Assembly (NCBI GenBank): GCA_051362555.1
Contig: CM120642.1
Location: forward strand, 33,356,001-33,420,000
Direction: 5' to 3'
DNA: 64,000 nt
From: Lingula anatina
Lineage: Eukaryota > Animalia > Brachiopoda
Each line of letters opens with the position of its first letter. The first letter of the stretch is position 1. A program made the position numbers and the translations under genes. Of this stretch, positions 13,786 through 63,225 are shown piece after piece. The notes under the pieces are model-generated. The model had not been told where the DNA came from. It was given only the letters and a program-made list of their open reading frames with translations, and made no database searches.

Positions 13786-13857
13786 TGCCGTGACCAGGAT
13801 TCGAACCTGGGTTGTCTCGGCCACAACGAGAAGTACTAACCACTATACGATCACGGC
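13786..13857 (-). tRNA. tRNA-His (GTG)
   Basis: Minus strand GCCGTGATCGTATAGTGGTTAGTACTTCTCGTTGTGGCCGAGACAACCCAGGTTCGAATCCTGGTCACGGCA folds as a full cloverleaf with A and B boxes and anticodon GTG. T-run terminator ~40 nt downstream. Confidence 0.96.
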
Positions 13858-14316: not shown

Positions 14317-14388
14317 TGCCGTGACCAGGATTCGAACCTGGGTTGTCTCGGCCACAACGAGAAGTACTAACCACTATACGATCACGGC
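14317..14388 (-). tRNA. tRNA-His (GTG)
   Basis: Identical 72-nt body to 13786..13857, with a conserved leader and trailer. Confidence 0.96.
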
Positions 14389-30998: not shown

Positions 30999-33900
30999 AT
31001 GGATAATCTCATGATCTTTTGTTTCCTTGCCATTTTTGCAACTTGCAATTCTCAAGGTGAGTCTTAACTGGGCCAAGGATAGTTCTATTTTATATAACGA
31101 TGATGTAGCGTTGTTTTGATAAAGGGGGGGGGGGGGGGGCAATATTTGAGATAGATGTCTATAACAGTGTCTTCAATAATGCCATGAGTTCCTATGCACT
31201 GGACTCAATTGAGTCTGATACTTTCTTGTGACTTCTGGATGAAATTAATAAAAATTTCGGCTTTTCACTGTGGCATATGTACGCCTATATAGTTGTAATG
31301 CGTGCTTTTACGTGTAGAAACCGGGATAAGAGACCTCAGCATACATACATAGGGTTTATCTGATAAATGCTGTTTAGTCGTTTCTCTTCTCAAAAGCCTC
31401 ATTGCTTATTATGGCTTTAAAAAAAGCGGATACATGCTTTATTTATTTTTCTTTTGCTGCAGAAAGTCAAATGCATCTTTGTACCAAATGATATTAATCC
31501 AACAATCATTGAATCTTATTGAAAATTTAATGTAGATTTTAAGTCAAAATGCATGCTCTGAAATGTATTACTCTCAAAATTAGCCAAAGACAACAGCTGT
31601 AGGTCCTTGTGAAGTTTTTATTGTAATGTTTCGTCTCTGTAATAAACTGGCATTTTCCACATTGACTCTAAAGCTCACACAGTAATGTCAATACATTCAA
31701 GTTATACAACATACTTTCTTTTTTTTTTTAAAGGTGGTGTCCCTTATGAAAATATGGCTAGTGATGTAAATTTAAGGAAATGGATTAAACATGGAGAGTC
31801 AGCTAGCAGCGTCACTTTAGACAAAAACCCTTCTCTACTTGATCCAAACTGGTTTCTTCCAAAACATAAGCCACAACCGTTACGTCCAAAACAAAAGCCA
31901 CACTCTTTACGCTCAAAACATGAGCCTCACTCGTTACTATCAAAACATGGTCCACGTTTTTTACTTCCAAAACATAAGACACACAAGTTATCCCCAAAAC
32001 ATAAGCCACTTTTCTTACTTCCAAAACATAAACCACCCAAGTCAACCCCAAAACATGATCCACTATTCTTACTTCCAAAACATAAGACACACAAGTTACC
32101 TCCAAAACAGGAGCCACTTTTCTTACTTCCAAAACATAAGCCACCCAAGTCAACCCCAAAACATGAGCCACTTTTCTTACTTCCAAAACATAAGCCACCC
32201 AAAACAACCCCAAAACATGATCCACTTTTTTTACTTCCAAAACATAAGACACACAAGTTATCCCCAAAACATAAGCCACTTTTCTTACTTCCAAAACATA
32301 AACCACCCAAGTCAACCCCAAAACATGATCCACTATTCTTACTTCCAAAACATAAGACACACAAGTTACCTCCAAAACAGGAGCCACTTTTCTTACTTCC
32401 AAAACATAAGCCACCCAAGTCAACCCCAAAACATGAGCCACTTTTCTTACTTCCAAAACATAAGCCACCCAAAACAACCCCAAAACATGATCCACTTTTT
32501 TTACTTCCAAAACATAAGACACACCAGTTATCCCCAAAACATAAGCCACTTTTCTTACTTCCAAAACATAAACCACCAAAGTCAACCCCAAAACATGATC
32601 CACTTTTCTTACTTCCAAAACATAAGACACACAAGTTACCTCCAAAACATGAGCCACTTTTATTACTTCCAAAACAGAAGTCACCCAAGTCAACCCCAAA
32701 ACATGGCCCACTTTTCTTACTTCCAAAACATAAGCCACCCAAAACAACCCCAAAACATGATCCACTTTTCTTACTTCCAAGACATAACCCACACAAGTTA
32801 TCCCCAAAACATGATCCACTTTTCTTACTTCCAAAACATAAGACACCCAAGTCAACCCCAAAACATGAGCCACTTTTATTACTTCCCAAACATAAGCCAC
32901 CCAAGTCAACCCCAAAATATGATCCACTTTTCTTACTTCCAAGACATAAGCCACCAAAGGCACCCCCAAAACATGGCCCACTTTTCCTACTTCCAAAACA
33001 TAAGCCACCAAAGTTTCCCCCAAAACACGAGACACTTTTATTACTTCCAAGTCATAAGACACCCAAGGCACCCCCACAACATGGCCCACTTTTCTTACTT
33101 CCAAAACAAATGGCAACCAAGTTACCCCCAAAACATGGCCCACTTTTCTTACTTCCAAAACATAAGACACCCAAGTCACCCCCAACAAATGAGCCACTTT
33201 TATTACTTCCAAAACATAAGACACCTAAGTCTCCCCCAAAACATGAGCCACTTTTATTACTTCCAAAACACAAGCCACCAAAGTTACCTCCAAACCATGA
33301 TCCACTTTTGCTACTTCTCAAACATAAGACACCCAAGTTTCCCCCAAAACATGAGCCACTTTTATTACTTCCAAAACATAACATACCCAAGTCTACCCCA
33401 AAACATGAGCCACTTTTATTACTTCCAAGACATAAGACACCCCCAAAACATGGCCCACTTTCCTTACTTCCAAAACATAAGCCACCAAAGTCTCCCCAAA
33501 AACATGAGCCACTTTTCTTACTTCCAGAACATAAGCCACCCAAGTTACCCCCAAAACATGATCGACTTTTCTTATTTCCAAAACATAAGACACCCAAGTC
33601 TCCCCAAAAAGATGAGCCACTTTTATTACTTCCAAAACAAAAGCCACCCAAGTTACCCCCAAAACATGATCGACTTTTCTTACTTCCAAAACATAAGACA
33701 CCAAAGTCTCCCCCAAAACATGAGACACATTTATCACTTCCAAGACATAAGACACCCAAGGCACCCCCAAAACATGGCCCACTTTTCTTACTTCCAAAAC
33801 ATAAGCCACCAAAGTCATCCCCAAAACATGGCCCATTTTTCTTACTTCCAAAACATAAGTCACCCAAGATTCCCCCAAAACATGAGCCACTTTTATTACT

Positions 33901-36900
33901 TCCAAAACATAAGACACCCAAGGCACCCCCAAAACATGGCCCACTTTTCTTACTTCCAAAACATAAGCCACCAAAGTCATCCCCAAAACATGGCCCATTT
34001 TTCTTACTTCCAAAACATAAGTCACCCAAGATTCCCCCAAAACATGAGCCACTTTTATTACTTCCAAAACATAAGCCACCCAAGTTACCCCCAAAACATG
34101 AGCCACTTTTATTACTTCCAAAACATAAGCCACCCAAGTTACCCCCAAAACATGGCCCACTTTTCTTACTTCCAAAACATAAGACACCCAAGTTTCCCCC
34201 AAAACAAGAGCCACTTTTATTACTTCCAAGACATAAGACACCCAAGGCACCCCCAAAACATGGCCCCCCAAAACATGGCCCACTTTTCTTACTTCCAAAA
34301 CATAAGCCACCCAAGTCACCCCCAAAACATGGCCCACTTTTCTTACTTCCAAAACATAAGCCACCAAAGTCTCCTCCAAAACATGGCCCACTTTTATTAC
34401 TTCCAAAACATAAGCCACCCAAGTCACCCCCAAAACATGGCCCATTTTTCTTACTTCCAAAACATAAGTCACCCAAGATTCCCCCAAAACATGAGCCACT
34501 TTTATTACTTCCAAAACATAAGACACCCAAGTCTCCCCCAAAACAAGAGCCACATTTATTACTTCCAAGACATAAGACACCCAAGACACCCCCAAAACAT
34601 GGCCCACTTTTCTTACTTCCAAAACATAAGCCACCCAAGTCACCCCCAAAACATGGCCCATTTTTCTTACTTCCAAAACATAAGACACCCAAGTTTCCCC
34701 CAAAACACGAGCCACTTTTATTACTTCCAAGACCTAAGACACCAAAGGCACCCCCAAAACATGGCCCACTTTTATTACTTCCAAAACATAAGCCACCCAA
34801 GTTACCCCCAAAACATGATCGATCTTTCTTATTTCCAAAACATAAGACACCCAAGTCTCACCCAAAACATGAGCCACTTTTATTACTTCCAAAACATAAG
34901 ACACCCAAGTTACCCCCAAAACATGGCCCACTTTTCTTACTTCCAAAACATAAGCCACCCAAGTCACCCCCAAAACATGGCCCATTTTTCTTACTTCCAA
35001 AACATAAGTCACCCAAGATACCCCCAAAACATGAGCCACTTTTATTACTTCCAAAACATAAGACACCCAAGTCTCCCCCAAAACATGAGCCACATTTATT
35101 ACTTCCAAGACATAAGACACCCAAGGCACCCCCAAAACATGGCCCACTTTTCTTACTTCCAAAACATAAGCCACCCAAGTCACCCCCAAAACATGGCCCA
35201 CTTTTCTTACTTCCAAAACATAAGCCACCAAAGTCTCCCCCAAAACATGAGCCACTTTTATTACTTCCAAAACATAAGCCACCCAAGTTACCCCCAAAAC
35301 ATGATCGACATTTCTTATTTCCAAAACATAAGACACCCAAGTTTCCCCAACAACACGAGCCACTTTTATTACTTCCAAAACATAAGACACCCAAGTCTCC
35401 CCCAAAACATGAGCCACATTTATTACTTCCAAGACATAAGACACCCAAGGCACCCCCAAAACATGGCCCACTTTTCTTACTTCCAAAACATAAGCCACCC
35501 AAGTTACCCCCAAAACATGATCGACCTTTCTTATTTCCAAAACATAAAACATCCAAGTCTCCCCCAAAACATGAGCCACTTTTATTACTTCCAAAACATA
35601 AGACACCCAAGGCACCCCCAAAACATGGCCCACTTTTCTTACTTCCAGAACATAAGTCACCCAAGATTCCCCCAAAACATGAGCCTTTTTTATTACTTCC
35701 AAAACATAAGACACCCAAGTCTCCCCCAAAACATGAACCACTTTTATTACTTCCAAAACATAAGCCACCCATGTTACCCCCAAAACACGAGCCACTTTTA
35801 TTACTTCCAAAACATAAGACACCCAAGTCTCCCCCAAAACATAAGCCACCCAAGTTACCCCCAAAACATGATCGAATTTTCTTACTTCCAAAACATAAGA
35901 CACCCAAGTTTCCCCCAAAACATGAGCCACTTTTATTACTTCCAAGACATAGGACACCCAAGGCACCCCCAAAACATGGCCCACTTTTCTTACTTCCAAA
36001 ACATAAGCCACCCAACTCACCCCCAAAACATGGCCCACTTTTCTTACTTCCAAAACATAAGACACCCAAGTCACCCCCAAAACACGAGCCATTTTTATTA
36101 CTTCCAAGACATAAGACACCCAAGGCACCCCCAAAACATGGCCCACTTTTCTTACTTCCAAAACATAAGCCACCAAAGTTACCTCCAAACCATGATGCAC
36201 TTTTGCTACTTCTCAAACATAAGACACCCAAGTTTCCCCCAAAACATGAGCCACTTTTATTACTTCCAAAACATAAGACACCCAAGTCTCCCCCAAAACA
36301 TGAGCCACTTTTATTACTTCCAAAACATAAGACACCCAAGTCTCCCCCAAAACATGAGCCACTTTTATTACTTCCAAGACATAAGACACCCAAGGCACCC
36401 CCAAAACATGGCCCACTTTTCTTACTTCCAAAACATAAGCCACCAAAGTCACCCCCAAAACATGGCCCACTTTTCTTACTTCCAAAACATAAGACACCCA
36501 AGTCACCCCCAAAACATGAGCCACTTTTATTACTTCCAAAACATAAGACACCCAAGTCTCCCCCAAAACATGAGCCACTTTTATTACTTCCAAAACATAA
36601 GCCACCAAAGTTACCTCCAAACCATGATCCACTTTTGCTACTTCTCAAACATAAGCCACCAAAGTCTCCCCCAAAACATGAGCCACTTTTATTACTTCCA
36701 AAACATAAGACACCAAAGTCACCCCCAAAACATGGCCCATTTTTCTTACTTCCAAAACATAAGTCACCCAAGATTCCCCCAAAATATGGCCCACTTTTCT
36801 TACTTCCAAAACATAAGACACCCAAGTCTCCCCCAAAACATGAGCCACTTTTATTACTTCCAAAACATAAGACACCCAAGTCTCCTCCAAAACATGAGCC

Positions 36901-39900
36901 ACTTTTATTACTTCCAAAACATAAGCCACCAAAGTTACCTCCAAACCATGATCCACTTTTGCTACTTCTCAAACATAAGACACCCAAGTTTCCCCCAAAA
37001 CACGAGCCACTTTTATTACTTCCAAAACATAAGACACCCAAGTCTCCCCCAAAACATGAGCCACTTTTATTACTTCCAAAACATAAGACACACAAATTAT
37101 CTCCAATACATGACCTACTGTTGCTACTTCTCAAACATGAGGCACAGTTGCTGCGTCCAAAAAATAAGCCACATCCGTTACGCCCTAAACAGGAGCCACG
37201 CCCGTTACGCACAAAAAGTGACGAGCCTCGTCAAAGTCATCACCGAGTGCAAGGAAGGGAACGTGATCTAGGTCTAACTACACCGTCACTCCATTCTCAT
37301 GAAAACTGGGATCACCTCCAGAGGCACCATCGTCGTTATCCTGGGGATTTACAAAAACATGGAATCCATTCCAATTCACCGGATTTTTCGAATCCAGTAG
37401 AGCAACCTGGTGGTTCTAATGAGAATTTCCACCACGGACAGCACCAAAGTTTTCATCAGCCTTTTCATCTGCGTCCTGCTCAACAATACGGACACTCTTA
37501 TAAGCACCGCAAACATCCTTTTCTAGCTCTACAGAACCGGCACGGTCAACAGCAACATCCTCCGGAGAGAGACCAACGCCATTTCAATCAACAACTACAT
37601 CGTCGTAAACACAAGCTTGGTAAGAAACAAAAAATGAAAAGTGAATTGCGCCTTTCTAAGATGCAAAAGAACTTCGTGAGTTTAAAGAAGACTTTAAAGG
37701 CTGTTCTGAACTTACTTCGAAAGAACAAGAAGCACAAGAAGAGCAGTCGCTCTGTTAACCGGAAAGGTTACAAAGACATGAAGAAATCATTAAGTAGAAT
37801 TTCGCATTTATTGCGGCTCCGTTTAAATACCAAACAAAAAAGTAATGGAGAAAATGCGCATGCAGACGATTTGAAGAAGAAAGTGAAAAAGGATCGAAGA
37901 ACGCTGGAAACCGTTCACGGCAGTTCAAAGAAAACACACGGAAATAAAGGACTTAAACATCACGCACGTAATTTGAACTTGAAGAAACAGGTGAAGGGTG
38001 AACGGAATACGTCGGCAGTTAAAAGCGGTAGTATTCAAATCAGTTTGGTGACACCGTCCACTCCAGTAATTCTCGCTGGGAGCCTGGAGGGGGAACTTGC
38101 ACTGAGCCCTAACATGAGTACCTCAGGTAGAAAAAAAGACATTAAACACCACTCACGTATTTTGAACTCGAAGAAAAAAGTGAAAGGTAATCGACGCACG
38201 CCGAAAATTGATAACGTTCTTTTAAGTAAAGCACTAATTAGCAATACAGGACTCAAATATCTCGCAAGCGTTTCGAAGAAAAAAGATAATAGACGCGCAC
38301 CAGAATCCGTTCAAGATATTTCAAAGAAAAAACACAGAAGAAAAGGATTCAAGAATCACGCACGACGCTTGAATAAAACGATGACAGGTAAATGGAATAC
38401 ATCGGCAGCCAAAAGTGGTAGTATTCAAATCAGTTTGGGGACACCGCCCACTCCAGTTATTCTCGCTGGGAGCCTGGAGGGGGAACTTGCAATAGAAGCT
38501 AACAGGAGCACCTCAGGCACAAAGAAAAGCATTAAACACCTCGCTCGTATTTTAAACTCGAAGAAAAAAATGAAAGGTAATCGACGCGCACCAGACGCAC
38601 GACGCTTGAATAAAAAGATGACAGGTAAATGGAATACATCGGCAGCCAAAAGCGGTAGTATTCAAATCAGTGCGAGGACACCGTCCTCTCCACTTATTAT
38701 CGCTGGGAGCCTGGAGGGGGATCTTGCACTGAGATCTAACAGGAGTACCTCAGGCAAAGAGAACCATGTCGTGCTAACAGACGTTGTTTTGTCTAAATCG
38801 CCGCTGCCAAAATCGCGCAGGACCAAGAACAAAAAGAAAGGCAGGCGTAAAAAACATAAAGGTGGCAAGCACAAAAATAGAATTGATCACAAAAAACGTC
38901 TTAAACGTGATCAAGATCTTCCGCTTATAAGGTTTATTTTAAGCAATATAAATACTAAAGCACACCATAAAAAACGAACAGTTGACCGAAATTCGCATAC
39001 GAAACGCTTGCACCGGCGACACCAGCTAAAATACAGCAACGATCTCGGCAAGAAACATTCTCGTCAACGGCAACACCTCAAAGTGCTCAGCAGGCACAAG
39101 CGTATCAAAAGGGAGACATATAATTCAGTCAACCCGCATCGTATTAATATCTTCGTCACTGAGACGGAGGTCGTGCCGGAAACTGAAGAAGAGATCCGGC
39201 GCCGAGGGCGACCTCTGACCACGACCAGTGCACCCAGTGGATCCAGTGTACCCAGTGGACGGGAGATGAACGGAACCCGCACAGTTCCTCAGACAAGGAT
39301 GGCCGTCAGTGAAAAGGCGTTCGAAGCATTTGGTGAGTATTCACCCAAACAGGTTTATTAATTATAGAAAGTAAGATACTTTGATAACACGGTTGTAGAA
39401 CAACTACAAATTTCGAGCCTTCAAGTTAAATCGTTATCCTCTACCAGGGACGCAGGTTGACCTTTTAACTAGATTTTCGCGGATATGTCCCAGGCTTATT
39501 CTTTACAATTTACTCTGCTGCCGATCTCTGGCCCAGGTAGAGGGTACAAAATTGTACGACGGGTTTTGAGGCGAGCAAGCGCAAAACGTTCCTGCCAAAC
39601 ATCTGCTCTCTGTTTCCAAGTGCCACTCGGACTCCGTATCTCTTTAGTCTCTTAGACAAGTACGTCCACGCTATCGTTTTTACTCATGAATGATACAAGT
39701 TATTATTACAATGGTGAAATATTTGAGAAGCAACCACTTAAACCCTTGCCAAAAACATGTAGCACACTGTCCACCTATGATGTTTAAATTTTGCCAAAAC
39801 GGGAGACAGCTCTACGCACCTCAAGACACGAAATCGGCATACCGTGCTTTGAACTCGTCTTTCGATGTTCTCGTAACAACTTTTTTTTTAAATGGCTAAA

Positions 39901-42900
39901 ATAACAAAAACATCGAGCTCGCCAGGACTCGAACCTGGAATCTTCCGCTCCGTAGGCGGACGCGTTGTCCATTGCGCCACGAGCCCGTTCACGTAGGTTG
40001 AAGCGGCAATAATCCGCCCATTTCAGGACGCCGACGGCATCGCATGTGATACCGCGATTATTTCAATTTTAGCTGTTAATGTAGACCTAAGTGCACAATT
40101 CGTGAGTTGTATCACATTATGGAGAAAGGTTGTCGCCATCACCTATAGGCTACAATGACGCCAAACTACATGTTAAATCGATGGATTCATTTGATTGAAA
40201 AATAATAAATCAATTGTGTAATTCGTCGACGACTGTGTGTATCCTTGCCAGGATGAGTGTAGTGGAGGATACCAATAGTAATAAACTCGTCTTTAAACCC
40301 GAAGTTTACGTATAAGGACTGAGGGCAACTGTCCTTCTTGGGCATTTTTACGAGTTTCACTCATGTTGAATCCACCAACCATCCATATCAAAACCAATCT
40401 TAAGTGACGGTAAGAGTTCTTTCAGAATTTCTCACTGTATTGCAAATCCATGGCTCGAGATCTGAAAAACGTGGTAGATGGGAAATCAACCCCTAAGTAC
40501 GGCCTCGGCTGTTGTGCACGTTTGTTTAGAGGTGGTGTAGTTACATACAAGTAGGTGGCTAGATAATGATCTCTAATCTCATAGAGTTCTTACATATAAT
40601 GTTTTACCAGTTCTCGTAAGGAGAATATGAGTACAGTTTCCACAAAATATGACTGAAAAAATGAAAAATCCGAGCTCGCCAGGACTCGAACCTGGAATCT
40701 TCCGCTCCGTAGGCGGACGCGTTATCCATTGCGCCACGAGCCCGTTTACACCTGCGTTCAGGTGTGCAAATCTAGCCACACGTGGATCTCTACTCCACGC
40801 TGCAGCTGTATGCCCTTTGGCTTGTATCACAGTGCTGCTTTATGAAGGGAAAGTTGATGAGCCGTACCACGCGACTGAGAGTGTGGAGACAAAATTTGTA
40901 GTGCCAGTGAGTAACCCAAACGCAATCACTCTTTCTGGAATGAAAACGCTTGGAATTGCGCCTTATTTTGGTCTCTGTTTCAAACACTTTTGTGCAATTT
41001 AGCTTATGTTTCGTTTCCTATGCTTTCATAACAATAGTCACTAGTCGTGTGATAGCTTTCAATAGAAGATATCAAGCTGCTCTGCCAAAATTAATGTGCA
41101 TGCGTTTCTTGTAAAATTATGTGGTATAGGTTAACACGACCTAACTTAAATAAGTAAACACAAGGAAAATACCGGTAATTCAGACACTTCCCATATACAA
41201 TGCGTCACAATATCCTTGGCTCCTTACCTCGCCACTGTACAATACAAGTGTTAACATTACACACTCTGTGTCAATACCGCCCATCTGTACTCTAAACACC
41301 AAGACATATGAGAGGGAATTATGCCGGATATTATTTCCAAATAAGAAATTCTGCTTCAACAACAGTTTATATTTGAGGTTACTATGTATAAATGTTCATA
41401 ACTTAAAATTCTGATCGGCCCAGTTTTATAAAGGACGTTTAGCACTAACTAGTGGATAAGTCTAACCAGTGGATAAATTCCCCTAACACCCATTAACTAA
41501 AAGATGGTTAAATTGTGTTTTATATACAGTCTTCTAACGGAAAACAGCCAATTAGTTAACTGGCCAGTGTTTGACTGGATTAAATAATTATTTAAAGGTC
41601 AGTTTACTAACAGACTATTTAGGTCTGGTTAGAGTTAAACACTGGTTAGTGCTAAACGTCCTTTATAAAACTGGGCCTTGATCATAAGTTGTTACTTTTC
41701 ACTTTCTACATGAAATTAAAGCTATAGGCCAAGGGGCTTTCAATCACTCCTTTCGTGTAGAAAGCGAACAGTTTAAACTTAGAACCATTATCATCAGACT
41801 ACACTGATGAATTTATATATCATTTAATGTTTAGTTTTAGCTGTGGTGTTCACGAGCACTGTATGGACGTTGGGTATTCTGGGTCTGATAGCTCTGTGCC
41901 TGTATAGACGAAGGAAGCAGGCAGAGTATAGAAAGCGCGGGTAACTATTCATATTTTCTAATATGTGTGATGTATTATTTTAAGTCCAGTTTGTTTATTA
42001 CTACTTTCTGTCTAGAATATATTCTCCTTGGTTTGTGGAAAGTTAGTCTGTACTACACATTAATGCCCAGCAGTTAGATTTGAAATAAATATACGACACA
42101 GTCACATCGACAAAAATCCTTACATACAGATATGATAACATTACTTTTTCAGTCTGGACGAACTTTCACGTATGCTTCTCTCTGAGGGTGATGATGCTCC
42201 TCCTCCTCCTCGGAAACAACATCACGAAGACGAAGCTGAAAAGTAAACAAAATATCTACAGCCCTCTGTGCAGTCGATTTACGTGATGTTAAGCTACCGT
42301 GATCTGCCAAAAAGGGTGTCCTCGCTTTTCATCCGAGTAACTTGATACATCGAAAAGTGTCAGTAATTCAATAGTTGCGTTGTGAAGTCACAATCCAAAC
42401 TGGTTCTCCATTCCGTTGTCAGTTTGCTTTTACATATAGTAGAAGTTTACATAGCAGGTAACACGCATATGTCTTATCTTATTTTGAAATTAAAATGGAA
42501 TTTGATATCATTCCCACAACTTCACTTCCAGACCGTCGATGATTCCCTGGTACTGTCGTTTTCCACACCTATTCAAGGTTCCTCCCCAACGACCCCCTGC
42601 CTATGTCAGACTGGGCAACTTCAGCCAACAGACCCCCGGGACATACGTCGTCACCATGTAGGTAATTTTCAGCTTTTCCTACAATATTCGGTCACAGCGC
42701 AATAATTTCGAGAGCAAAAATCGAATTATTATCGAGAGTATAAATCAAATTATTTCAGTAAATCAATTGACAATTTTAAATTTGATACAATCATATACAT
42801 ATTTGTCAAGAGTTTGTCACGGAGTTAAATTACCCCTGTGTACATGTGTAAAAAAAAAACTCGTTTTGCCGAGTTGAATATCACTGTAGCACTCTACTTA

Positions 42901-44759
42901 TACATGCATATGCATTCATATTCATTTTTTTTTTTTTTTTTTGCTAACTAATATGTACATTCATAAGCCTTTCTGGTAACGGACTGAGCAATGATAGTAT
43001 TAAACTCATCCCAACTACGAATTGTATGATAGTGAATAAGGGAAAAAAAGATGAAAACTTAAGAGGCAAGGTACATCACAGTTGGGGCTCGAACTTTCAT
43101 ACACGTTAGATTGGGGTAAGTGTCTTTTTCATGTATTGTGAACTGAAAACAATATAGTAAAAATCTATGGTTGATTTCAGGCCAGAGAACAACACATCCT
43201 TGTTCTCTATAGACAGTGATTCAGATGAAGAGGGAGCAGATAATAAAGCTAAGAAGCTGGATACAACGCCGAACACAGACGCTCAGAACGACAAAGATAA
43301 AGCTAAGAAGCTAGCTACAACGCCGAACACGGACGCTCAGAACGACGAAGATAAAGCTAAGAAGCTGGCTACAACGCCGAACACGGACGCTCAGAGCGAC
43401 GAAGAAAAAGCTAAGAAGCTGGATACAACGCCGAACACGGACGCTCAGAGCGACGAAGAAAAAACTAAGAAGCTGGATACAACGCTGAACACGGACGCTC
43501 AGAAAGACGAATTAGAAAGGTAACGACTGCATTCGGACCACTACAGGACATAGAATTCAGGGATACCAAATAAGTTCTTCTTTGTTGCCGGGAATTTGAG
43601 AGGGGTTGGAGAGGGGGTAGCAAACAAACATCCATGCCAAGGCAAATCAACAACCACAAAAAAGGGAAAGAAAGCTAAGACAATAGTTACAAAAGAAAAT
43701 AAATTGGGGAAAGTAATGTTTGGCATTATAAATATATAGTCAAAAATCAATTTTACAAGTAATTGACTATCACCTTTAACAGGCCTACCCAACTACCAGA
43801 CTCGGCACCGAATGATCCTGAATTCACCGGTAAATTGGACCACACTACCCGTTTTCAAGGTGTGTATCAGTACGCATTTCACAGTATCAGACGCGACACC
43901 GCTCTTGCCTAGTACGCGATGTGATAGGGACAATTCTCAGCGGTGTTTAAAAGCATTGCATCACCACTCAAAATTTGTTCAGGGTATGATACTGTGTAAT
44001 GCGTGCTGACTCACACCTTGAAAACGGGTAGTGTGGTCTGATCTACCGGTGAATTCAGGATCATTCGGTGCCGAGTCTGGTAGTCGGGTAGGCCTGTTTA
44101 AGCGACCACAGCGATGCCAGTTGTATAGTGGCACAAAGGGCGTCGTCCAGCGTGAAGGGGGTTTAACTTTGCCATTTGTTCAAACACATTACTATAATGT
44201 AAAATTACGTTGAAACTTTCAAAATTGGAAAAAATTAACCTCCGTTTGCCGTGACAGAGATATTTCCACAGCTCTGCCGTGACCAGGATTCGAACCTGGG
44301 TTGTCTCGGCCACAACGAGAAGTACTAACCACTATACGATCACGGCTGCTACGGGAGGATGTCGAACGTAGCACAAGTTTAGCCTACCCAACCACAATTT
44401 GCAACTGTATCGTTAATATTTGCTTACACTGACAGTTGCTCACCCGTTATAAATTCATATTAATAAGTCATTATAGGTATGATTTTGGCGTTTGAAACAA
44501 CCCTTCTTTTAAAATTATCATGAACAGTTGAAAAAAGTACACGTGCCCTGCATATCCTGTAGCAAATGTTACGTCTAGAAACGTATACGAACTTTATTTA
44601 AAGTTTCCTCATTCCTTTTTTAGATCTATACCTATTGCAACATCTACTCCCTTAAAATCATCTGGTTTATCCGAGTTGAAGAAAAGGGCTGCTGCCGTGG
44701 AAGAAGCAGACAAACAGGTACAGACAGACGACGACGAGGATTATCCACCTTTAAGCTGA
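30999..44759 (+). CDS. Uncharacterised giant type I membrane protein (~2815 aa) with Pro/Lys/His/Leu tandem-repeat ectodomain; 7 coding exons
   Basis: Exons 30999-31056 (signal peptide MDNLMIFCFLAIFATCNSQ), 31734-39332, 41841-41940 (TM AVVFTSTVWTLGILGLIALCLY then RRRK), 42153-42242, 42532-42657, 43181-43519 and 44624-44759 (stop TGA). All junctions are GT-AG with matching phases (1,1,2,2,2,2); total 8448 nt, open throughout. Confidence 0.8.
31856..37200 (+). repeat. Coding minisatellite, 54-bp unit (two 27-bp halves each with CCAAAACAT), ~100 copies
   Basis: Consensus peptide PKH[EGD]PL[LF]LL-PKHK[TPS]PK[SLFA]P. A 270-bp higher-order period is visible at 31981, 32251, 32521 and 32791. Confidence 0.97.
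39914..39986 (-). tRNA. tRNA-Arg (ACG), D-loop variant
   Basis: GGGCTCGTGGCGCAATGGACAACGCGTCCGCCTACGGAGCGGAAGATTCCAGGTTCGAGTCCTGGCGAGCTCG; cloverleaf with anticodon ACG. Lies in intron 2 of the repeat-protein gene. Confidence 0.93.
40671..40743 (-). tRNA. tRNA-Arg (ACG)
   Basis: GGGCTCGTGGCGCAATGGATAACGCGTCCGCCTACGGAGCGGAAGATTCCAGGTTCGAGTCCTGGCGAGCTCG followed by a T-run terminator. Confidence 0.96.
41417..41677. mobile_element. MITE with long TIRs
   Basis: GGCCCAGTTTTATAAAGGACGTTTAGCACTAAC ... GTTAGTGCTAAACGTCCTTTATAAAACTGGGCC (>30-bp perfect inverted repeat). Confidence 0.85.
43245..43514 (+). repeat. Coding tandem repeat, 5 x 54 bp, in the cytoplasmic tail exon
   Basis: KAKKL[DA]TTPNTDAQ[NS]D[EK][DE] repeated five times. 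Confidence 0.93.
43780..44096. mobile_element. Foldback-type MITE with ~110-bp TIRs, flanked by TTTAA direct repeats
   Basis: tttaa|CAGGCCTACCCAACTACCAGACTCGGCACCGAATGATCCTGAATTCACCGGTA... and its reverse complement ending ...GGTAGGCCTG|tttaa. Confidence 0.88.
44275..44346 (-). tRNA. tRNA-His (GTG)
   Basis: Identical body to the copies at 13786 and 14317; lies in the last intron of the repeat-protein gene. Confidence 0.96.
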
Positions 44760-47597
44760 CGCAAAAGCACCATCTGATTAGTGGGTCGAACTCAAATGTG
44801 ACATGAGAAAAAAGCGTCATATTCAAGACCACTGAAGTTCTCAAAATTATTCACCGTGCAATTGACAGAAAAAAATGGAATGGACGGCTGAACACTGCGC
44901 ACTATGTGCGTATATGTATATGTATATAAACTCCCACGTGCCTTGTTTTGCACGTAGACAAACACGGTTGATAAAAAGTGTTGACACCACGCAAATAGAG
45001 GACCATGTGAAATCTATTTGTGATATAATGTTGAGACATAATGGGGACACGCCACAGGAGCAATTATTTTTTCACAGCCACGAATTGCGCTGTCCCGGAT
45101 GTATAGTGGGAGTCCACTAACTGAGGCAAAAGCAAATGGTTGATGCCTGCACGTTGTTTATGCATATTTCAAATGTAAAGTTTGAACTTGGGATTAAAAG
45201 CATAAATGTTTGATTGTAACTATCTTATTTCCTTTCACACTGTACCGATTCCATTTTGACGTGTATATTTTAACAAAAGCAGATATTTCATGATATAAAT
45301 CGGAGTTGTAAATTGCTTATTTGGTTGTTTTCTGTTTTTTCTATTAGACAACTTGATACGTAAATTATGAGGTTTATTATTCGCGCATGCACCTGTTACA
45401 CATTATTACCAGTATCTTATCTCTTGCATATTCACATCTGGGACATCTTGTAACATGATATTTGTTTCATAGCGAAACGGCATCAAAAATGCATCAATAT
45501 GTGATTAAAATTTGATTAGTCCAAAAATATGTACGCTCCCGCAAACGATTAAACTCCCCGTCGCCATAAGTTGTGCGTTTTAGCTTAAAGAATGCACTTT
45601 CTAACTTTAAAGGTAATACTTGCACAGTCACAGATTAGGGAAAAGTCACATTCTATAGGTCGTCACCCTTTTCAATACATAGTACATTTAGACAAACGAT
45701 TTGAGCATCACTTGAAAAACAAACGGAGAATGTTCCTAGTGTTTGCTCGTTCCTAGCCTAACTGAGGGGAGGCTTTAAATCCCGGCTTAGCCCACTAACA
45801 GCCCATACCTTCTGAAGCACTCACATGGTGTGTGTGCCTGTTTAGTCGACTTACGCCTAGCAACTACCTGCTTTTAAGTTCCCTTCAAACTCGGTCACAC
45901 GCATTCACCGATAAGATAAAAAGGTTGACGTGAGAGCACAGTATACCCCTAAGAAGAAATACAGCAGGGTTATAAAGTGAGTAGTTAAAGTATATAATGA
46001 AACTTAAAATGTAGGAGAATCCTGGCAGTAATATGAGAGAGAACAGCAGATAACATTGATGGGGACGGTAAGTTTGTCACATGACGCTTACGTCGTTTCA
46101 TTGACTTTTCGTGCAACAGATTGATGAAATGATGGTTAGTGACGGATAAATCATGTCAGTCAGTTTGGGATATTATCATATGATTTACACTTAGTCTACA
46201 AATACCAATATGTTAACAAAGATGGCGGTGTGAAAATGAAGTTTAAGAGAAAAGGAACGGTAGGTGGAACAGAACAAGATTTCAAGGACTATAAAAACAA
46301 GGAACAATGTTTCAGAATTTTTGTGATGAAAATATAATATAAATGTTGTTTTGAAAAAACAAGAGTGAGGTCCGTGACCAAGCTGGGGTCTGCCAGGTTC
46401 CAAAAAGCAGCCCTTTTGCTGTGAAAAGGTCCGTTCTGGTTATAAATGAATCTAGGTACACGAAGGTTTCTTGGAATACGGTTCACTTTTTCAGAAAAAT
46501 CCCCCCTCCTTTGAAATTGCTAGCAATGGGCCTAACAATTATGAAAAGGATTACCTATTAACAGGAATCTTAAAGAGTCTGAGATTCAAAACCCGAGAAA
46601 TCATAGTACAATACCCCCCTAAAGACCTGTTCAGACTAGAACATATTTAGACTGAAAATAAGATCAAATTGGACCATTAGGCGGCGAGACTGAGCCTGGA
46701 CTCAGGGGAATACTGGTGTAGTACTGTAAGGCTCTTCACAGATATTGGTAAACATTGAAAACAGATAGCGACAGTCTTCAGTGAATTGCGCCGTAAATCA
46801 CGAATTCTATTGGCATTTTCAACGTGTTATCTTAAGGAGGGGATGAAAAGGAGGGAGCTGAGTATGTGGGGTGGGGTGGGGTGGAGAGTATTGGTTAAGT
46901 TGTGACTAATCTTTCTTCTAGAAGGAAGTTCTCTCAGTAAGTTGAGTCAGTGGGGGGACCCCGCGTCTTATCTGACATCCGCGTCTGCTGATAAAAAAGT
47001 TGACAAATATGCAGACAGAAAATCTGCTCCACTGCAGTGCAGGTTCATGGTAATGGCGGTGTACGTGCAGTGTTTATCACTGATCATAATGTCCTAAAGT
47101 AAACAACAGCTTGAGTCAACATTACATTGCAGCAGGTTGATCATAGCAAGCACCTGCATTTCATAACAGATAATGAATAAATTACAGAGAGAATATCAAC
47201 AGATTTGCCAAAGCCAGGCTATAGGAAATGGTGGTAAGATGGTCACATCGCGGGGTTCATACTATATGATCACGACCAAGCAGCAAACATCCACCATCAA
47301 CTATAATGAGATATAGACAAAAATATAGAATTGAATTTATACTTTTTGCGATTATCTAAGCCTTGCAATAGCACAGGTTAAACATAAAATAGGCAGGTTG
47401 AATTACAGACGAAATGTTTTTGGCAGATTACATGTGTTGTAAGAGAAAATGATTCTTCCAAAAGTAAGAATACTTGAAAAAGCACAGCTCTGGATTATTA
47501 TTGTCCTAATACCAAATGATTGGTTGTCATAGCAACACTTCCTCCACGTACAACCACATTTACTCTATTACAGCTGAAGCGAATCTTACGAGGAGAC

Positions 47598-50500
47598 ATG
47601 GACGACCTTTCCTCATCTGTGAGGCCTTCCCAAGGGGCGGCAGTCCTCGAATCTCTCCCGCGCAATGTATACTACATGGACGAGGAAGACAGGAGGCAGT
47701 CGGCAGATGACAGCACTGTCGCGAATTATCAGTATGGCGATACAAACTTTGGCCTGAAAAGTCGGATGTTCGGAACGACCTCCGCTTTTTTCAATAGTGG
47801 CATGACTGGTCCGATTTCGAATGGTTCCTATGGATACCAAGAATCGCACTTTCTCAACAGAAAACAGCAAGAGGCCAGCATGAACAAGACAGAAAAGGGA
47901 CCAGGATTGGCAAATGGCAGCAGCAAGTTTTCCTTGAAGACCGCGAGTCCTGGTCCGGATGGCTTCCATCCTAATGATGACAAAAGTTCTTTCTTTGCTA
48001 AGGTGAGCCCAAGCGACTTTGTTTGACTTCTCAAAGGCCATGTCTAGTTCTGTACTTTTTCATCTTCAAATGTTTTAGTTCTAGATACTTATTTAAGGCT
48101 ACCCGATAATAGCATACCCTATGTATTCCATAGTCAAAATAAAAACATAAGTTCATTTGGCTTTAGCACTGGTTAACGAATCCGCTCAGTCCTAGATTTG
48201 GAAAAGCTCTTAAAACTCACAAAATAAAAGGACGCGACTTCTTCGTTGGTTTGATAAATGAATCTTCCTACATTGGTTTTTACAGGGTCGTGACTTCGAA
48301 AGCGTCAATACCAACCATAAGTATACCATTTCTGAGAGAGAACTGCTAGCAACTCATGACAGTCAGGACTATCTGCCCCCTCACAGCGAGGTCTACAAAA
48401 AGTGGATAAGAAAGCGTCCGGCAAGGTAAGTCCAACATTCTTCTCATATTTTTATTGAATTGCACATATAGAAGGTGTGTTCTTTTAATTACACAAAAAA
48501 TATCACTGTCATCCAGTAAAAAAGTAATATTTCATTGTTGACTTCAAAAACGTTTCTAAAACGAAATAATTTCTTTGGTCCTCCGTAGATTAAACTGGGA
48601 CCGCTGGTACATGATGGCGCTGATTGGCTGCGCAGTGGGAATTGTGGGATACCTCCTCCACCAAACCGTCGCCATGATTTCAGACTTCAAATGGGAGAGA
48701 GCAGAAGAGTATATTAAGGTGTATATAAACGATTAGTCCATTTTCATTAGAAGTGCAGAATGGACGTCTAAGAAACACTTTAAAACATACAAGACAAAGA
48801 AAAGCAAGCATGATGTGTGAATTTTGAAATGAGCGATACGATTTCACATCAGGATTTTTTTTCCAATATATTTTAAAAGTATAAATGGCACTGAAATCGC
48901 TTTGCTGTTAATTAATTTACTATTTATTTACTTTGATGAAAAATAATTTTCAATTTATGTTTTAGGAAGATATTTGGAAAGCGTACGCTTGGTTGTTGAG
49001 CTACAGTCTAGGATTCACTGCCATAGCGTCCTTCTTAGTTGCAGTAAGTGGCAACATATCCAACCACAAACATGAAGCAGTTTTTTAAAGATTCATCTTG
49101 ATTAAGAGCACTAGCTGTTATAGATATATCAGATATAAAATAGTATCATAAAAACGCTCTTTTAAATAAGTTTCCGCGTTAAAGCGTGCGTGAGAGATAC
49201 ATGCACGTTTCCTGAATAGGGCCTATATATAGTTTATATCGTGTCCTTCCAGTTTGTATGGCCATACGCAGCGGGTTCGGGAATTCCAGAAATCATCGGT
49301 TTCCTGAACGGCACAGTTGTCCGCCACGCGCTGAACCTCAAGACCTTCATCGTCAAGTTTCTGTCGTGCGCATGCGCCGTGGGTGGAGGTCTCCCCGTCG
49401 GACCTGAAGGACCAATGATCCACATAGGGTATTACACACTTGATCGTTTAATCCGTTGTCAAGTTTACTTAAAATCAAAACTGTAGGCTCATTGTGCGCT
49501 GTTCGTAACGTGTTTGTATCATTAGCTCTATTTTCTCATCAATCCATTTAAACAACATCAGTGGCACATGAACGCTGAATGACATACAAGAGAAGCGCAG
49601 TTGTTAAACATTTCGGGTAAATTGCTTCCATCAAATTAAAGATTGTTTTATACCATTTTAGAGCTATCGTCGGAAATGGCCTAAGTCAATTTCGTTCGAG
49701 GACCTTTGGTTGTAAACTTCCGTTTTTTGAACGATTCAGGAACTCAGAAGACAGGTAAGGGTTTTAGGGAATATAACGTTTATGTCTTGATAAGTTTGGT
49801 AAATAGCAGGTTGGCAAGGACTACAATTTGTCAATAGGACATGCATCGTGCAATAAACCGACTTGTGCCTTCCTATATTACAGGGGAGCATCATTTTTGG
49901 GGCCTCAAATGGATTAAAAGATCACATCTAATAGTTTGCAGTAATGTTATGTGCATTTTGATCACTTTAAATGTGAACGAGAGAAACGGGAGTTTTTAAC
50001 CAGTTACTGTCTTCACTGCTGTTTGGCACGTACTGCCATATAATGCCTTACTACGGGCAAATATTAATACTTGTACCAGTGACGTCAGATTTCGTTTAAT
50101 AACCCCGCTTCTTTCCTTCGCTACAAAAGTGATCAAAATTCGGAGAAAAAAGTGCATGTGACTCAAATCTAACATTTAAACTCCCAGAGAAAGACATTTG
50201 TCTGTGGCAACTGTTTCCGCCCAAAAATGAAAAAGTTAGAAGATATTGGCAAATGAGTTAAGTTTCCATAAGTGATATGGCTGAAAAAATGAAAAACACG
50301 TGAGCAAAATTCGGAGAAAAAATGCATATGAATTAAATCTAGCATTTAAACCCCCAAAGACGTTTGCCTGCAGTAACTGTTTCCGCCCTAAAATGAAAAT
50401 GTTGGAAGATATAGGTGGCAAATGAGTTAAGTTCCCATAAATGGCTGAAAAAATGAAAAACACGAGCTCGCCAGGACTCGAACCTGGAATCTTCCGCTCC

Positions 50501-53500
50501 GTAGGCGGACGCGTTATCCATTGCGCCACGAGCCCGTTCTCGTAAGCGTTACGCTGACGTGATCCGCCGATGCCAAGACGCCGACTGCATAGCGTGTGAT
50601 ACCGCCATTATTTTAATCTTGGTCGAACAATATAGGCCTCGTAAGTGGACAGTTCATGAGTTGTATCACAGTATAGAGGGAGTTTGAACTGTAGTCCTAG
50701 ATAGAAACCGAACTGCATGCTATATCGATGGGTGAATTTGATGGAAAAATTCAAAAACATTGATTGAAAAACATGCGTAATTCATCGATGAAGAAGTATC
50801 ACTCATGATGAATCCACCAACCCATCCACATCCAAGCTATTTCACTCCTTTCTACAATCTTAAATGACGGTCAGATTTCTTTCAAAATTAACCTCTGTTT
50901 TTAAGTGCACGTTTACAAATCCGTGGTTCGAGATCTCAAAACATGATAGACTGGGGATGTCAACCCACTAAGGTCATGCCCAGTTGATATGTTACGTTAG
51001 GGGTGGTGTAGTTAAATACAAGAAGACAGCTAGTTGATGATCTCAAATTCCATTGAGTTCGTACATATAATGTTATACCAGCTCTAGTCATAAGATATTG
51101 GCAAATGAGTGAAGTTTCCATAACAATATGGCTGAAAAAATGAAAGACACGAGCTCGCCAGGACTCGAACCTGGAATCTTCCGCTCCGTAGGCGGACGCG
51201 TTATCCATTGCGCCACGAGCCCGTTCATGTAAACGTTACGCTGACCTGTTCCGCCGATGCCCAGACGCCGACTGCATAGCATGTGATACCGCCATTATTT
51301 CAATCTTTGCTGAATAATGTAGGCCTTGTAAGGGAACGGTTCATGAGTTATTTCACAGTATAGAGGGGGTTTGGCCCCGAGTTCTATACAGAAGCCAAAT
51401 TGCATACTAAATCGATGGCTGAATTTGACTGAAAAATAATAAATCGTGTGTAATTCGTCGATGATTGTGTACGTCCTTGCCATGATGAGTGTAGTGGAGG
51501 TTACCAATAATAAACGCGTCTTATCAACCTTAGTTTACATAACATGACACATTGAAGGACAAAAGTCCCTCCTCAGCATTTTTATAACGTTTAAGTATCA
51601 CTCAGGGGAGGATTTAGGGGGGGCCTTACCTCCCCTTCGGTTTCTCTAAAAAAATTACACCAATAATCCCTTCCTGAAATTAAAATTTGACTAGCTGAAA
51701 CAGTTCTCAACCGTTCCGAATGGAGCCGTTCGCACTCTAAAATACCAAAATTTTGCGGGACCCTTCAGCCGCAGCGGGGTCCGAACCCCACGCCAAGGGG
51801 GAGGGGAGGGGAGAATCGGCTTCGCATCCGCAGACAAACCCCCCTTCAAATGACCTTAGATCCGCCCCTGTGACTCATGATGAATCCACCAACCCATCCA
51901 CATCTAGGCTTCATCACCCCTTTCAACGATCTGAAATGACTGTCAGATTTCCTTCCAAATTTAGCTTTTTTTCAACGTTCGCGATTACAAATCAGTGGCT
52001 CGAGATCTCAAAACGTGAAGGATAAGGATACCTACCCCCTAAGTACAGCCTCTACTGATGTGCAAGTTTGTTTAGGGGTGGTGCAGTGTCGAGTAGACAG
52101 CAAGTTGATGATCTCAAATCCCATGGAGTTCTTATATATAATATTATACCAGCTCTAATTACAAGTTATTGACAAATGAGTTGAGTTGCTAAAAATGATA
52201 CGGCTGAAAAAAATGAAAATTTCGAGCTCGCCAGGACTCGAACCTGGATTCTTCCGCTCCGTAGGCGGACGCGTTATCCATTGCGCCACGAGCCCGCTTA
52301 CGCAAGACCAAGAGCCAACGTCGGTCCGGCTCCAACCTCTACTCCAGCTATCTCTTTAAGATAAAAACTTTTTTTACAAGTCTCAATCGTACCTTTCATT
52401 TTCACAAGTCCTTTCTTTTTTAATGCACGTTCTGTATCCATTAATCCTTATCTTCATGATTTTAAAATTTCAGGAGAAATTTCACTTCAGCGGGGGCCGG
52501 TGCCGGGGTGGCGTCTGCTTTTGGAGCACCCGTGGGTGGTTTGTTATTCGCTTTGGAAGAAGTGTCTTCATTCTGGACGATGAAACTGTCTTGGATGACT
52601 TTCTTCTGCTGTATGGTGGCCACATTTTCCACAGACTTTCTGAACTCAGCATTTGCCGAATTCAAATACTGGGGAAGCGTCGGCCTGTTTGATGTGGATA
52701 AATACATCATATTCCGGGTGGGTGAATGTTCGTGTTGATTTACGGACACTTAATTTTTACCTTAATATCAATGCTTAACTTCTTGCTGTCGGTACACCTA
52801 ATTCACCAAAGCAAGTGCCACTACAATGAAAATCTTTTGAAATAATTGATTATTGGCAATTTACTTGCTAAAGTTGTCTTTGGGCGCGTCATTTTGAATG
52901 GCAGTGTCAGAACTTTCACCATTTTGTAATGACCTCCTATCCTGGTTCCTAGGTTCGAGATGCACTTGCCATAAACATCATTATGTTCCTACCGTCGGTT
53001 GTTCTGGGGATATTTGGAGGAATCCTGGGCGCCATCTTCACCATCATCAATTTAAAAATAGGTCGCACAAGACGAGCCATCATGTCAAAGATAACGAACA
53101 AATGGCTGGAAAAGCTGGCCAGGTTTTTTGAGCCTCTGATTATCATGGTAATACATTCTCATAATACGGTATTTCCAATTATTTGTTAGATTATTAAATA
53201 GCAAGACCTTTTAAATAAGAATAATAATTAAATTAAAAAATTGTTACACAGCTGAAATTAAATCTTTGAACCAAAATATGAACCCCCCTTTCCCTTGCGA
53301 GAAAGGGCGCATTTACATAGATTTTAGATCGATCTATCCCCATGGGGAGTCTCACTAGATTACTGTCAGATAATCCGGCTTAAATGTCCGTCCCGCTCCT
53401 ACAAGCTGTAACTTGTAAGGAGGTAATTAACTTTCGTGCCCACTCGGCTGGCAGCTATTTAGCGTGAACCCCCAGGGAGTTAGGTCGATCTAGTATCTCA

Positions 53501-56500: not shown

Positions 56501-57507
56501 AGCGGAGATTCCACCGCACGCTCCCCCAGATAAAGTGTACACACCCAGTCTTTCCTTTGGAGTGGTAGGTGGCATTGACGGATTAAATATACGTTCATAA
56601 TAATATATTGGGAAAAAAACCGCAACCTTGTGAATTCAACTAAAATATCCCACTCTATTTCGGTAAAAAATGACTTTAACCTGTTGCACAGTGTAGAGTC
56701 TGGTATGTAGAATGTTTGATTATTGTTCTAAAGAAGATAATGAAGAGATCTTGAAGTTTTCTGAAGAAAATCACATGCTCTTTTTCACTTGAAAATCTTC
56801 AAGGTAAAAAACTTACCGATTTAATATGACTTAAATGGACTACAGGTTTATGTTTATATCTGTTGTTATGTTTATATCTGTTGTAAAATACATATACAGA
56901 ATGCCTTGAAATTTACTTAAACTGTTTATTTTTTTAGCTACGTGACGCCATTGATCGTTTGGGAAGTTTGAAAATGCGTGAAGCCCTTCTACAGAAATAC
57001 GTAACTAATTCATCCTACCAAGATATTATGCTAGATCTTGTAAGTGAAAGTATTTACTTAAATAAATCAAAACCTAATGTACATATATGTGTGGATAAAA
57101 GGCATAAAACTGAATTTGATATGGAGTGAAAATTCCAATTTTACATTTCTCTTTCTTTCTTACATTAATAGTCGCCGTTCATCAATAAATCATCAAGCAG
57201 TATTCAAAGCAGCTTCTCTCTCCATCGGACCTATATAATGTTCCGCACACTGGGATTACGTCATCTGACAGTTGTGGATCGCCGGAACCGCGTGGTCGGT
57301 ATCTTGTCGCGGAAGGATATCATGGGTCACTATCTGGAGGAGAAACTGGACTTAAAGCAGCGGAGGCAAAGACACCGGACACAACGAAAGGTCGAGTCAG
57401 AAAGAAGGAAAGGAAAAGAGGCATTCGCTTATGAAAACATTGTAGTTTCGACTACATTGGAAAGGGAAGGAAATGATCACATGAGGAATGACGACGTTTT
57501 GTACTAA
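47598..57507 (+). CDS. CLC-family chloride/proton exchanger (ClC-6/7-like branch), ~975 aa, 17 coding exons
   Basis: Exons 47598-48002, 48286-48425, 48589-48718, 48966-49043, 49253-49428, 49662-49754, 52474-52717, 52953-53147, 53608-53714, 54371-54495, 54790-54961, 55209-55395, 55672-55841, 56085-56261, 56474-56564, 56938-57039 and 57172-57507; phases are consistent (2928 nt). Motifs GSGIPE, GPEGPMIH, AFGAPVGGLLFALEE, GLVVP, PLYH and two C-terminal CBS domains (GGYPVV; FRTLGLRHLTVVD). Confidence 0.92.
50463..50535 (-). tRNA. tRNA-Arg (ACG)
   Basis: Identical to 40671..40743; in intron 6 of the first CLC gene. Confidence 0.96.
51150..51222 (-). tRNA. tRNA-Arg (ACG)
   Basis: Identical to 40671..40743; in intron 6 of the first CLC gene. 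Confidence 0.96.
51603..51870. mobile_element. MITE with CAGGGG termini inserted in a tRNA-Arg spacer; 5-bp TSD (TCACT/TGACT)
   Basis: CAGGGGAGGATTTAG ... TTAGATCCGCCCCTG. The paralogous empty site gtatcactcatgatgaatcc is at ~50796. Confidence 0.85.
52223..52295 (-). tRNA. tRNA-Arg (ACG), variable-loop variant
   Basis: One substitution relative to the other copies (AAGAAT vs AAGATT); stems intact. Confidence 0.93.
53305..53494. mobile_element. 3'-truncated copy of the MITE at 19271..19485
   Basis: Shares ATAGATTTTAGATCGATCTATCCCCATGGGGAGTCTCACTAGAT...GGAGTTAGGTCGATCTAGT; right TIR missing, followed by a local ~36-bp tandem duplication. Confidence 0.85.
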
Positions 57508-63152: not shown

Positions 63153-63225
63153 CGAGCTCGCCAGGACTCGAACCTGGAATCTTCCGCTCCGTAGGCGGAC
63201 GCGTTATCCATTGCGCCACGAGCCC
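63153..63225 (-). tRNA. tRNA-Arg (ACG)
   Basis: Identical to 40671..40743; in intron 6 of the second CLC gene. Confidence 0.96.

Follow-up and report, generated by a model that had tools for sequence, protein, structure and literature searches.

The subject of this report is a giant gene of the brachiopod Lingula anatina, which lies on the forward strand of a stretch of 64,000 nucleotides (nt), hereafter the window, of contig CM120642.1 in NCBI GenBank assembly GCA_051362555.1 (positions 33,356,001 to 33,420,000). The gene consists of seven exons, with GT-AG at every intron end and intron phases of 1,1,2,2,2,2, and the joined frame of 8,448 nt encodes 2,815 amino acids (aa) with a single terminal stop, corresponding to a predicted full-length protein of 321 kDa. 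Hydropathy and motif scans find an N-terminal signal peptide, a single transmembrane helix and basic residues on its cytoplasmic side. The seven-exon reading frame, which encodes a predicted type I membrane protein, is confirmed as a real feature of the window (Table 1). An earlier sequence-only reading had interpreted an open reading frame of 2,558 aa (counted from its first Met; 2,571 aa from stop to stop, 31646-39358) as exon 2 of a spliced gene with a signal exon upstream and, downstream, a transmembrane exon bearing RRRK and four cytoplasmic exons, and the joined frame supports both this gene model and its topology.

Table 1. Coordinates of the gene, the regions of its predicted protein and other features of the window.
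Feature	Residues (aa)	Position in window	Strand	Remarks
Exon 1	1-19 (predicted signal peptide)	30999..31056	+	Start codon; phase-1 donor AAG/GTGAGT
Exon 2		31734..39332	+	7,599 nt; almost entire ectodomain; acceptor with 16 pyrimidines in 17 positions
Tandem array	62-1818 (1,757 aa)	31859..37129	+	27-nt units paired as 54-nt unit, ~97 copies
His/Gln-rich linker	1819-1975	37130..37600	+	H 14.6%, Q 12.1%
Lys/Arg-rich domain	1976-2479	37601..39112	+	Net charge ~+113; Ser/Thr 16.5%
Heptad-patterned helix	1993-2014	37652..37717	+	a/d positions L,M,F,L,L,V,L; AlphaFold2 helix, pLDDT ~85
Three 225-nt repeats in Lys/Arg-rich domain		37978-38202, 38368-38592, 38605-38829	+	Each with a low-confidence predicted beta-hairpin
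R-X-[K/R]-R motif RLKR	2408-2411	38897..38908	+	Motif scan
Overlapping R-X-[K/R]-R motifs RHKRIKR	2473-2479	39092..39112	+	Boundary of basic domain and neutral stalk; predicted furin-type cleavage site
Neutral Ser/Thr-rich stalk	2480-2552	39113..39332	+	Ser/Thr 23%
Exon 3	2553-2575 (predicted transmembrane helix)	41841..41940	+	Helix followed by RRRK; most hydrophobic 19-residue windows
Exon 4		42153..42242	+	Cytoplasmic; dileucine-like ELSRML (aa 2589), PPPPRK; donor seen in 2 reads
Exon 5		42532..42657	+	Cytoplasmic; YxxΦ motifs YCRF (2623) and YVRL (2640), plus PPAY; acceptor seen in 2 reads
Exon 6		43181..43519	+	Cytoplasmic; acidic cluster DSDSDEE; five 54-nt (18-aa) repeats at 43243-43511
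Exon 7		44624..44759	+	C-terminus: acidic run, YPPL (2811), then TGA
Second open frame over array		31821-37268	+	One base off the main frame
Element with inverted-repeat ends		43776-44096	 	Intron 6
Sarcosine dehydrogenase (SARDH)		9833-10123	+	Last coding exon
NRARP-like ankyrin gene	107 aa	26881-27204	-	Single exon
ClC-type chloride channel genes		47598-57507; ~59216 to window end	+	Two, in tandem
tRNA-Arg(ACG)		39913-39987, 40670-40744, 50462-50536, 51149-51223, 52222-52296, 63152-63226	-	Six near-identical copies
tRNA-His(GTG)		13786-13857, 14317-14388, 44275-44346	-	Three identical copies

Support for the exon chain

The donor of exon 1 and the acceptor of exon 2 rank in the top 0.3% of the GT and AG sites of the locus by a simple score, and the acceptor of exon 6 is unremarkable among the AG sites. 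On the + strand of the window, exon 1 alone passes as a signal-like first exon of phase 1 (it contains two ATGs), and exon 3 is the sole phase-1 exon combining a transmembrane segment with basic residues when both strands are filtered, under thresholds that were in each case chosen with the candidate exons already known. The non-repetitive part of exon 2, 727 codons, is open in only one of the six frames while the others carry 25-56 stops each, and the longest open stretch obtained in 2,000 shuffles was 206 codons.

Four of nine RNA runs from the same species were mapped to 37150-50000, with about 6-26% of each run read, and this region covers five of the six junctions. Exon coverage is near nil, amounting to about two fragments, with a single bin of exon 2 at depth 0.7 in run X1. 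In run X7 two reads, which probably derive from one fragment, join 42241 to 42532 with one letter between, and this is the exon 4-5 junction with a one-base difference. That junction is therefore backed by RNA, and the remaining five are supported by sequence. The neighbouring ClC gene is also at depth below 2 in the same four runs, indicating that the power of these RNA data is low. Splicing agrees with the model at one junction, and expression in the four runs sampled is not abundant.

Architecture of the predicted protein

Cys occurs only at residues 8, 16, 2572 and 2624 and nowhere within aa 17-2571, in agreement with the Cys-free ectodomain claimed earlier. The greater part of the ectodomain is a tandem array, degenerate at both ends, in which the 9-mers PKH-[EGD]PL[LF]LL alternate with PKH-K[TP]PK[SLA]P. 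Its core comprises 95 hydrophobic and 94 cationic 9-mers together with 2 short blocks, Tandem Repeats Finder reports periods of 27, 54 and 162 nt, and the core holds one non-unit indel of -9 nt and one of +15 nt, each of which keeps the frame. The array is composed of P 27, K 21, L 19.5 and H 11%, with Asp at 1.1% and Ser plus Thr at 7.6%, and is net positive; 193 His and 356 Lys stand in the core next to only 64 Asp plus Glu, no HH pair occurs there, and two Tyr are found in the array. Successive His are 9 residues apart in 156 of the 198 intervals. The sequence-only reading had described blocks of PKH-EPLLLL and PKH-KTPKSP placing His every nine residues, followed by a His/Gln-rich linker and a Lys/Arg-rich domain, and all of this holds, although the alternating array is nearer 1,760 than 1,780 aa and the Ser/Thr-poor character assigned to the protein is true of the array but not of the Lys/Arg-rich domain or the stalk.

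In the AlphaFold2 model, a segment of 108 aa from the array has no regular secondary structure (predicted template-modelling score 0.12), as expected for an extended Pro-rich chain. For aa 1976-2552 the mean predicted local distance difference test value (pLDDT) is 46.6, and the heptad-patterned helix that opens the Lys/Arg-rich domain is a possible coiled coil. The calculated charge of the array is +510 at pH 5 and +316 at seawater pH, and that of the fragment aa 20-2479, with a mass of 281 kDa, is +685 at pH 5 and +438 at pH 8.

Two further features, beyond those of the earlier reading, concern cleavage and sorting. R-X-[K/R]-R motifs occur three times in the whole protein (aa 2408, 2473 and 2476), all of them 74-145 aa before the transmembrane segment, and the two overlapping ones sit where net charge falls from +113 to 0. 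The cytoplasmic tail of 240 aa is acidic (pI 4.9). Besides a dileucine-like motif it has an acidic cluster containing CK2-type sites and an 18-aa repeat in five copies; three of its five Tyr lie in YxxΦ motifs, a number reached in 483 of 20,000 shuffles.

Searches for relatives

Pfam gives no match above cut-off for the ectodomain or the tail, and exon 3 yields only a weak match to TM_ErbB1 below the cut-off (E 0.009). The 727-aa non-repeat region was compared by phmmer with 1.84 billion cluster representatives and with PDB sequences and matched none of either. A word-index search with exon 5 covered proteins of 73-2,000 aa, which leaves out full-length relatives, and returned no candidate. 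The ESM Atlas offered no usable match for the non-repeat part, the array scoring only up to 0.76. Of 299 pattern matches in metagenome contigs none was confirmed, and Foldseek found no match at E <= 0.001 for the AlphaFold2 model of aa 1976-2552. No description of the protein was found among the papers listed by literature searches, including a full-text search for 5-mers of the repeat, in a mainly open-access body of papers. The earlier statement that no family could be recognised is thus borne out, in the non-repetitive part and in the tail alike, and the protein apparently belongs to no recognised family and is apparently undescribed. The protein collection searched holds the RefSeq proteins of Lingula and yet returned nothing, which suggests that the gene is unannotated in RefSeq.

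A proposed shed polycation condensing with polysaccharide

We propose, with a probability of roughly 0.45, that the protein is a membrane-anchored precursor which would be sorted to vesicles and cut by a furin-type protease; the fragment set free, an extended polycation of 280 kDa, would then build an extracellular matrix by condensing with sulphated polysaccharide. At the sequence level the proposal is based on the exon chain together with the composition, motifs and charge of the protein, and from these we infer sorting, cleavage, chain form and condensation. The tail motifs would route the protein via the trans-Golgi to secretory vesicles, where a furin-type convertase could cut at RHKRIKR and free the ectodomain; the position of the furin motifs at the membrane-proximal edge offers such a route to shedding. 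A polyproline-II-like chain rises by 0.31 nm per residue. The Pro-rich array would adopt an extended chain of this kind, about 0.5 micrometre long at full stretch, and its 9-residue period would correspond to three polyproline-II turns that place His with Leu and Pro on one face (H 34, L 30 and P 29%) and Lys on the other two. In acidic vesicles about 190 array His would be protonated, so that the chain stays extended and binds polyanion, whereas at seawater pH about 190 charges would be lost, the His/Leu face could pack or bind Zn/Cu, and the protein and glycosaminoglycan would form a coacervate or gel. The membrane anchor would set the place and time of this condensation.

As a site, the glycosaminoglycan-rich primary layer of the shell, or the periostracum, is our leading and still improbable candidate, and the pedicle cuticle, mucus and the chaetal follicle are alternatives under the same mechanism. 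The Lingula shell combines fluorapatite, chitin and glycosaminoglycan; its primary layer is described as mostly glycosaminoglycan and its mineral as fluorapatite (PMC13425148), the apatite as occluded in glycosaminoglycans (PMC9057340), and the shell proteome as one in which no secreted acidic matrix proteins were found and many of the novel proteins are basic (PMC4595640). A host with a glycosaminoglycan-dominated layer and basic shell proteins renders the biomaterial reading more plausible. In its most specific form the proposal would make the protein the missing organiser of the phosphatic brachiopod shell, a tethered and furin-released polycation of half a micrometre whose His/Leu pH switch coacervates glycosaminoglycan into the fluorapatite-bearing primary layer; taken as a whole, this version is distinctly unlikely.

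Counter-evidence and rival explanations

A number of observations weigh against the shed polycation, and they are taken here together with the rival explanations on which they bear. From the composition of the Lys/Arg-rich domain, chance alone would yield about 1.4 furin-like motifs in it, and YxxΦ motifs are generally known to serve endocytosis as well. Both facts would suit an ectodomain that stays tethered as a cationic epithelial brush, in effect a transmembrane mucin of reversed charge, which could bind an anionic cuticle, mucus or sediment grains to the cell or kill microbes, with a tail that recycles the protein. The type I layout, the single giant repeat exon and the Ser/Thr-rich stalk favour this explanation too; however, the overlapping motifs lie exactly at the charge boundary, and a tethered chain carrying +438 would presumably collapse onto the anionic surface of the cell instead of standing off as a brush. 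We consider the brush unlikely.

His periodicity follows from any 27-nt repeat, and the face pattern is the automatic outcome of any 9-residue repeat. By crude counts made within this gene, the ratio of non-synonymous to synonymous variation (pN/pS) within the array is about 0.9, the two kinds of allele, synonymous and non-synonymous, occur about equally often (17 of 37 versus 55 of 116), and the ratio of non-synonymous to synonymous substitutions (dN/dS) among the repeats of the Lys/Arg-rich domain is 0.44, 0.64 and 1.43. Since substitutions among repeat units are near-neutral, the His spacing alone is no proof of a metal- or pH-switch design. The array might be a largely neutral minisatellite expansion in a weakly expressed or decaying membrane-protein gene, its chemistry being incidental. 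The very few RNA reads and the failure to find an annotated counterpart are in keeping with this, and one further frame across the array likewise runs for 1,816 codons without a stop, so that an open frame by itself means little at this place. On the other hand, the 8.4-kb chain is stop-free over seven phase-compatible exons and includes the 727 open non-repeat codons, both non-unit indels keep the frame, and a spliced read pair exists. There are no stops among the 68 distinct variant codons of the array where 3.5 are expected (P ~0.03), and stop-making alleles are under-represented, only one of nine being seen and that one not as a stop. Taken together, these crude counts suggest a gene that preserves its frame and general composition even as the precise sequence of the units changes, and neutral expansion as the whole explanation is very unlikely.

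With regard to the second frame itself, it reads as a Q/H/S/F/N/Y-rich sequence, also with periodic His, and has internal ATGs from 31920. It was rejected as a true product, as no phase-compatible acceptor lies in 31819-32300 and the frame ends at the array end. The open second frame is probably a by-product, with a rough chance of 0.05-0.07, and dual coding of the array may be entertained.

Expression provides no tissue link, the gene being near-silent in the four RNA runs, and four of the five junctions within the mapped region were unseen at this low coverage. The names of the neighbouring genes were likewise not found in the supplementary files searched (PMC13121700). Near-silence, orphan status and near-neutral repeat turnover fit the general pattern of reproductive, stage-restricted genes, and this gene could encode a fast-evolving gamete or embryo-coat protein (of the cortical granule, vitelline layer or sperm surface), which would be released at fertilisation to cross-link an anionic egg coat. 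Pfam detects no known gamete-recognition domain in it, however; we regard this possibility as quite improbable.

In the shell peptide data no link to the gene was found. In the supplement of a 2026 shell proteome none of 12 peptide strings of the protein occurs, nor any accession numbered near that of SARDH, the closeness of numbering being itself an assumption (PMC13425148), and in another shell-proteome supplement 'PKH' has 0 occurrences (PMC4595640). The shell proteins unique to Lingula have A, G, S, T, D and E as their abundant residues, and not K, H or P (PMC13425148). The peptide miss is weak, because the proteins of the 2026 study carry RefSeq accessions and our protein was not found in a collection that holds RefSeq; the gene may be missing from the annotations behind the shell-proteome lists. 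The same miss bears on a direct action of the His/Lys array on metal or mineral, either through His-metal cross-links in chitinous chaetae or cuticle or through glassin-like nucleation of apatite or silica. The abundant His and Lys of the core array speak for such an agent, as do the fluorapatite of the shell and an Lsi2-like silicon transporter and a hexaxilin-like gene in Lingula (PMC5100055, PMC10772126). Against it, the active domain of glassin is described as His plus Asp (PMC10772126) while the array is poor in acidic residues and lacks HH pairs, His placed 9 residues apart could chelate between chains only, and siliceous larval shells are reported mostly for discinids. This explanation also has little probability.

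The biomaterial function proposed in the sequence-only reading accordingly stands in part: the host shell chemistry and the furin motifs favour it, but the link to hard or adhesive tissue did not materialise in RNA or peptides, and the near-neutral repeat substitutions tell against it.

Implications

Repeat proteins confined to one lineage are frequent among shelled invertebrates, and membrane scaffold precursors that are shed are already known. What is unusual here is that great size, positive charge, a His-Leu block period, a membrane anchor and a host with a phosphatic shell occur together. If the organiser model were true, the protein would represent a new class of 'charge-reversed mucin' biomaterial precursor, standing in place of the acidic proteins of carbonate shells, and the precursor would have been missed because its repeat exon escaped annotation. 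It is an open question how Lingula makes its apatite shell with neither bone genes nor secreted acidic matrix proteins (PMC4595640), and a polycation pairing with shell glycosaminoglycans would give a concrete and cheaply testable mechanism. Outside the shell too, a natural design of alternating hydrophobic and cationic blocks would interest those who develop pH-responsive materials, and the 321-kDa protein, which is apparently unannotated, illustrates how annotation misses giant repeat exons.

Neighbouring genes and elements

Upstream of the gene lies the last coding exon of SARDH; over 97 aa it shows 100% identity with Lingula anatina XP_013401693.1 (next best identity 72%), which places the window in this brachiopod or a very close relative of it. 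The exact sequence of the NRARP-like gene is not in the protein collection, its best match being 76% identical, and this region may be under-annotated. The two ClC genes follow directly after the gene and are similar in their downstream exons and divergent in their first exons. Two of the tRNA-Arg copies are located in intron 2 of the His-rich gene and one of the tRNA-His copies in intron 6; these scattered copies could be genuine tRNA genes or belong to a mobile repeat. Many RNA reads map to the small element in intron 6 at 90-95% identity and have flanks unrelated to it, as would be expected of a dispersed repeat resembling a miniature inverted-repeat transposable element.

Comparison with known systems

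Transmembrane mucins (MUC1/MUC4/MUC16) possess a signal exon, one giant tandem-repeat exon, juxtamembrane cleavage, a transmembrane segment with basic stop-transfer residues and a tail with Tyr motifs. The Lingula protein matches their exon layout, their transmembrane segment with basic stop-transfer, their Tyr-motif tail and, by prediction, their juxtamembrane cleavage, yet its array is strongly cationic and not a Ser/Thr-rich PTS repeat, and Pfam finds no SEA, AMOP, vWD or EGF domain in exon 2 or its parts. Collagen-like sequence is likewise missing, with 0 Gly-X-Y runs of four triplets. His-rich biomaterial proteins such as squid-beak HBPs, Nereis Nvjp-1, mussel mfp-4, amelogenin and histidine-rich glycoprotein are secreted proteins of far smaller size, in which the partner of His is Gly, Asp or Gln. 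Their His-rich repeats have no stable fold and answer to pH or metal, or bind polyanions or mineral, and by sequence the array can be likened to them, whereas in the array His stands in turn with blocks of Lys/Pro and of Leu, and the protein is a membrane precursor. Glassin differs in its His/Asp-rich silicifying domain (PMC10772126), since the array has little Asp and is net positive. The shell matrix proteins of Lingula resemble our protein in being lineage-specific, of low complexity and often basic, but the novel ones in the excerpt of the published table measure 103-253 aa, several of them Ala-rich (PMC4595640), and the array protein is more than 10 times longer, membrane-anchored and rich in P, K, L and H.

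The closest parallels in chemistry and layout come from two other groups. Extensins and proline-rich cell-wall proteins are long periodic Pro-rich chains with alternating hydrophilic and hydrophobic modules, and extensins have been proposed to pair ionically with pectin as a scaffold or template (PMC4132260). They are plant proteins, whereas the Lingula protein is of animal origin and has a membrane anchor with an acidic sorting tail, and its ectodomain contains 0 SPPP and 0 Tyr cross-link motifs (YxY, VYK). PMEL/Pmel17, the melanosome matrix precursor, is a type I protein with a signal peptide and a luminal repeat domain, in which furin-family cleavage frees a large fibril- or matrix-forming piece and the repeat assembles pH-dependently in vitro (PMC5037717); in Lingula the cleavage is predicted from motifs, and R-X-[K/R]-R sites do lie between the repeat region and the transmembrane segment, as in PMEL/GPNMB. 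The two show no sequence similarity in Pfam, the 1.84 billion representatives or PDB. The NTR, PKD and kringle-like domains of PMEL are absent from the Lingula protein by Pfam, PDB and Foldseek, as is any ectodomain Cys, and the PMEL repeat, described as 10 x 13 aa and rich in P, S, T and E, contrasts with a basic, Ser/Thr-poor array of about 97 x 18 aa. Because the defining features of PMEL, extensins, mucins, collagens and glassin were not found, the protein would fall outside all of these families. By analogy, it is PMEL-like in layout and extensin-like in chemistry while being a member of neither family.

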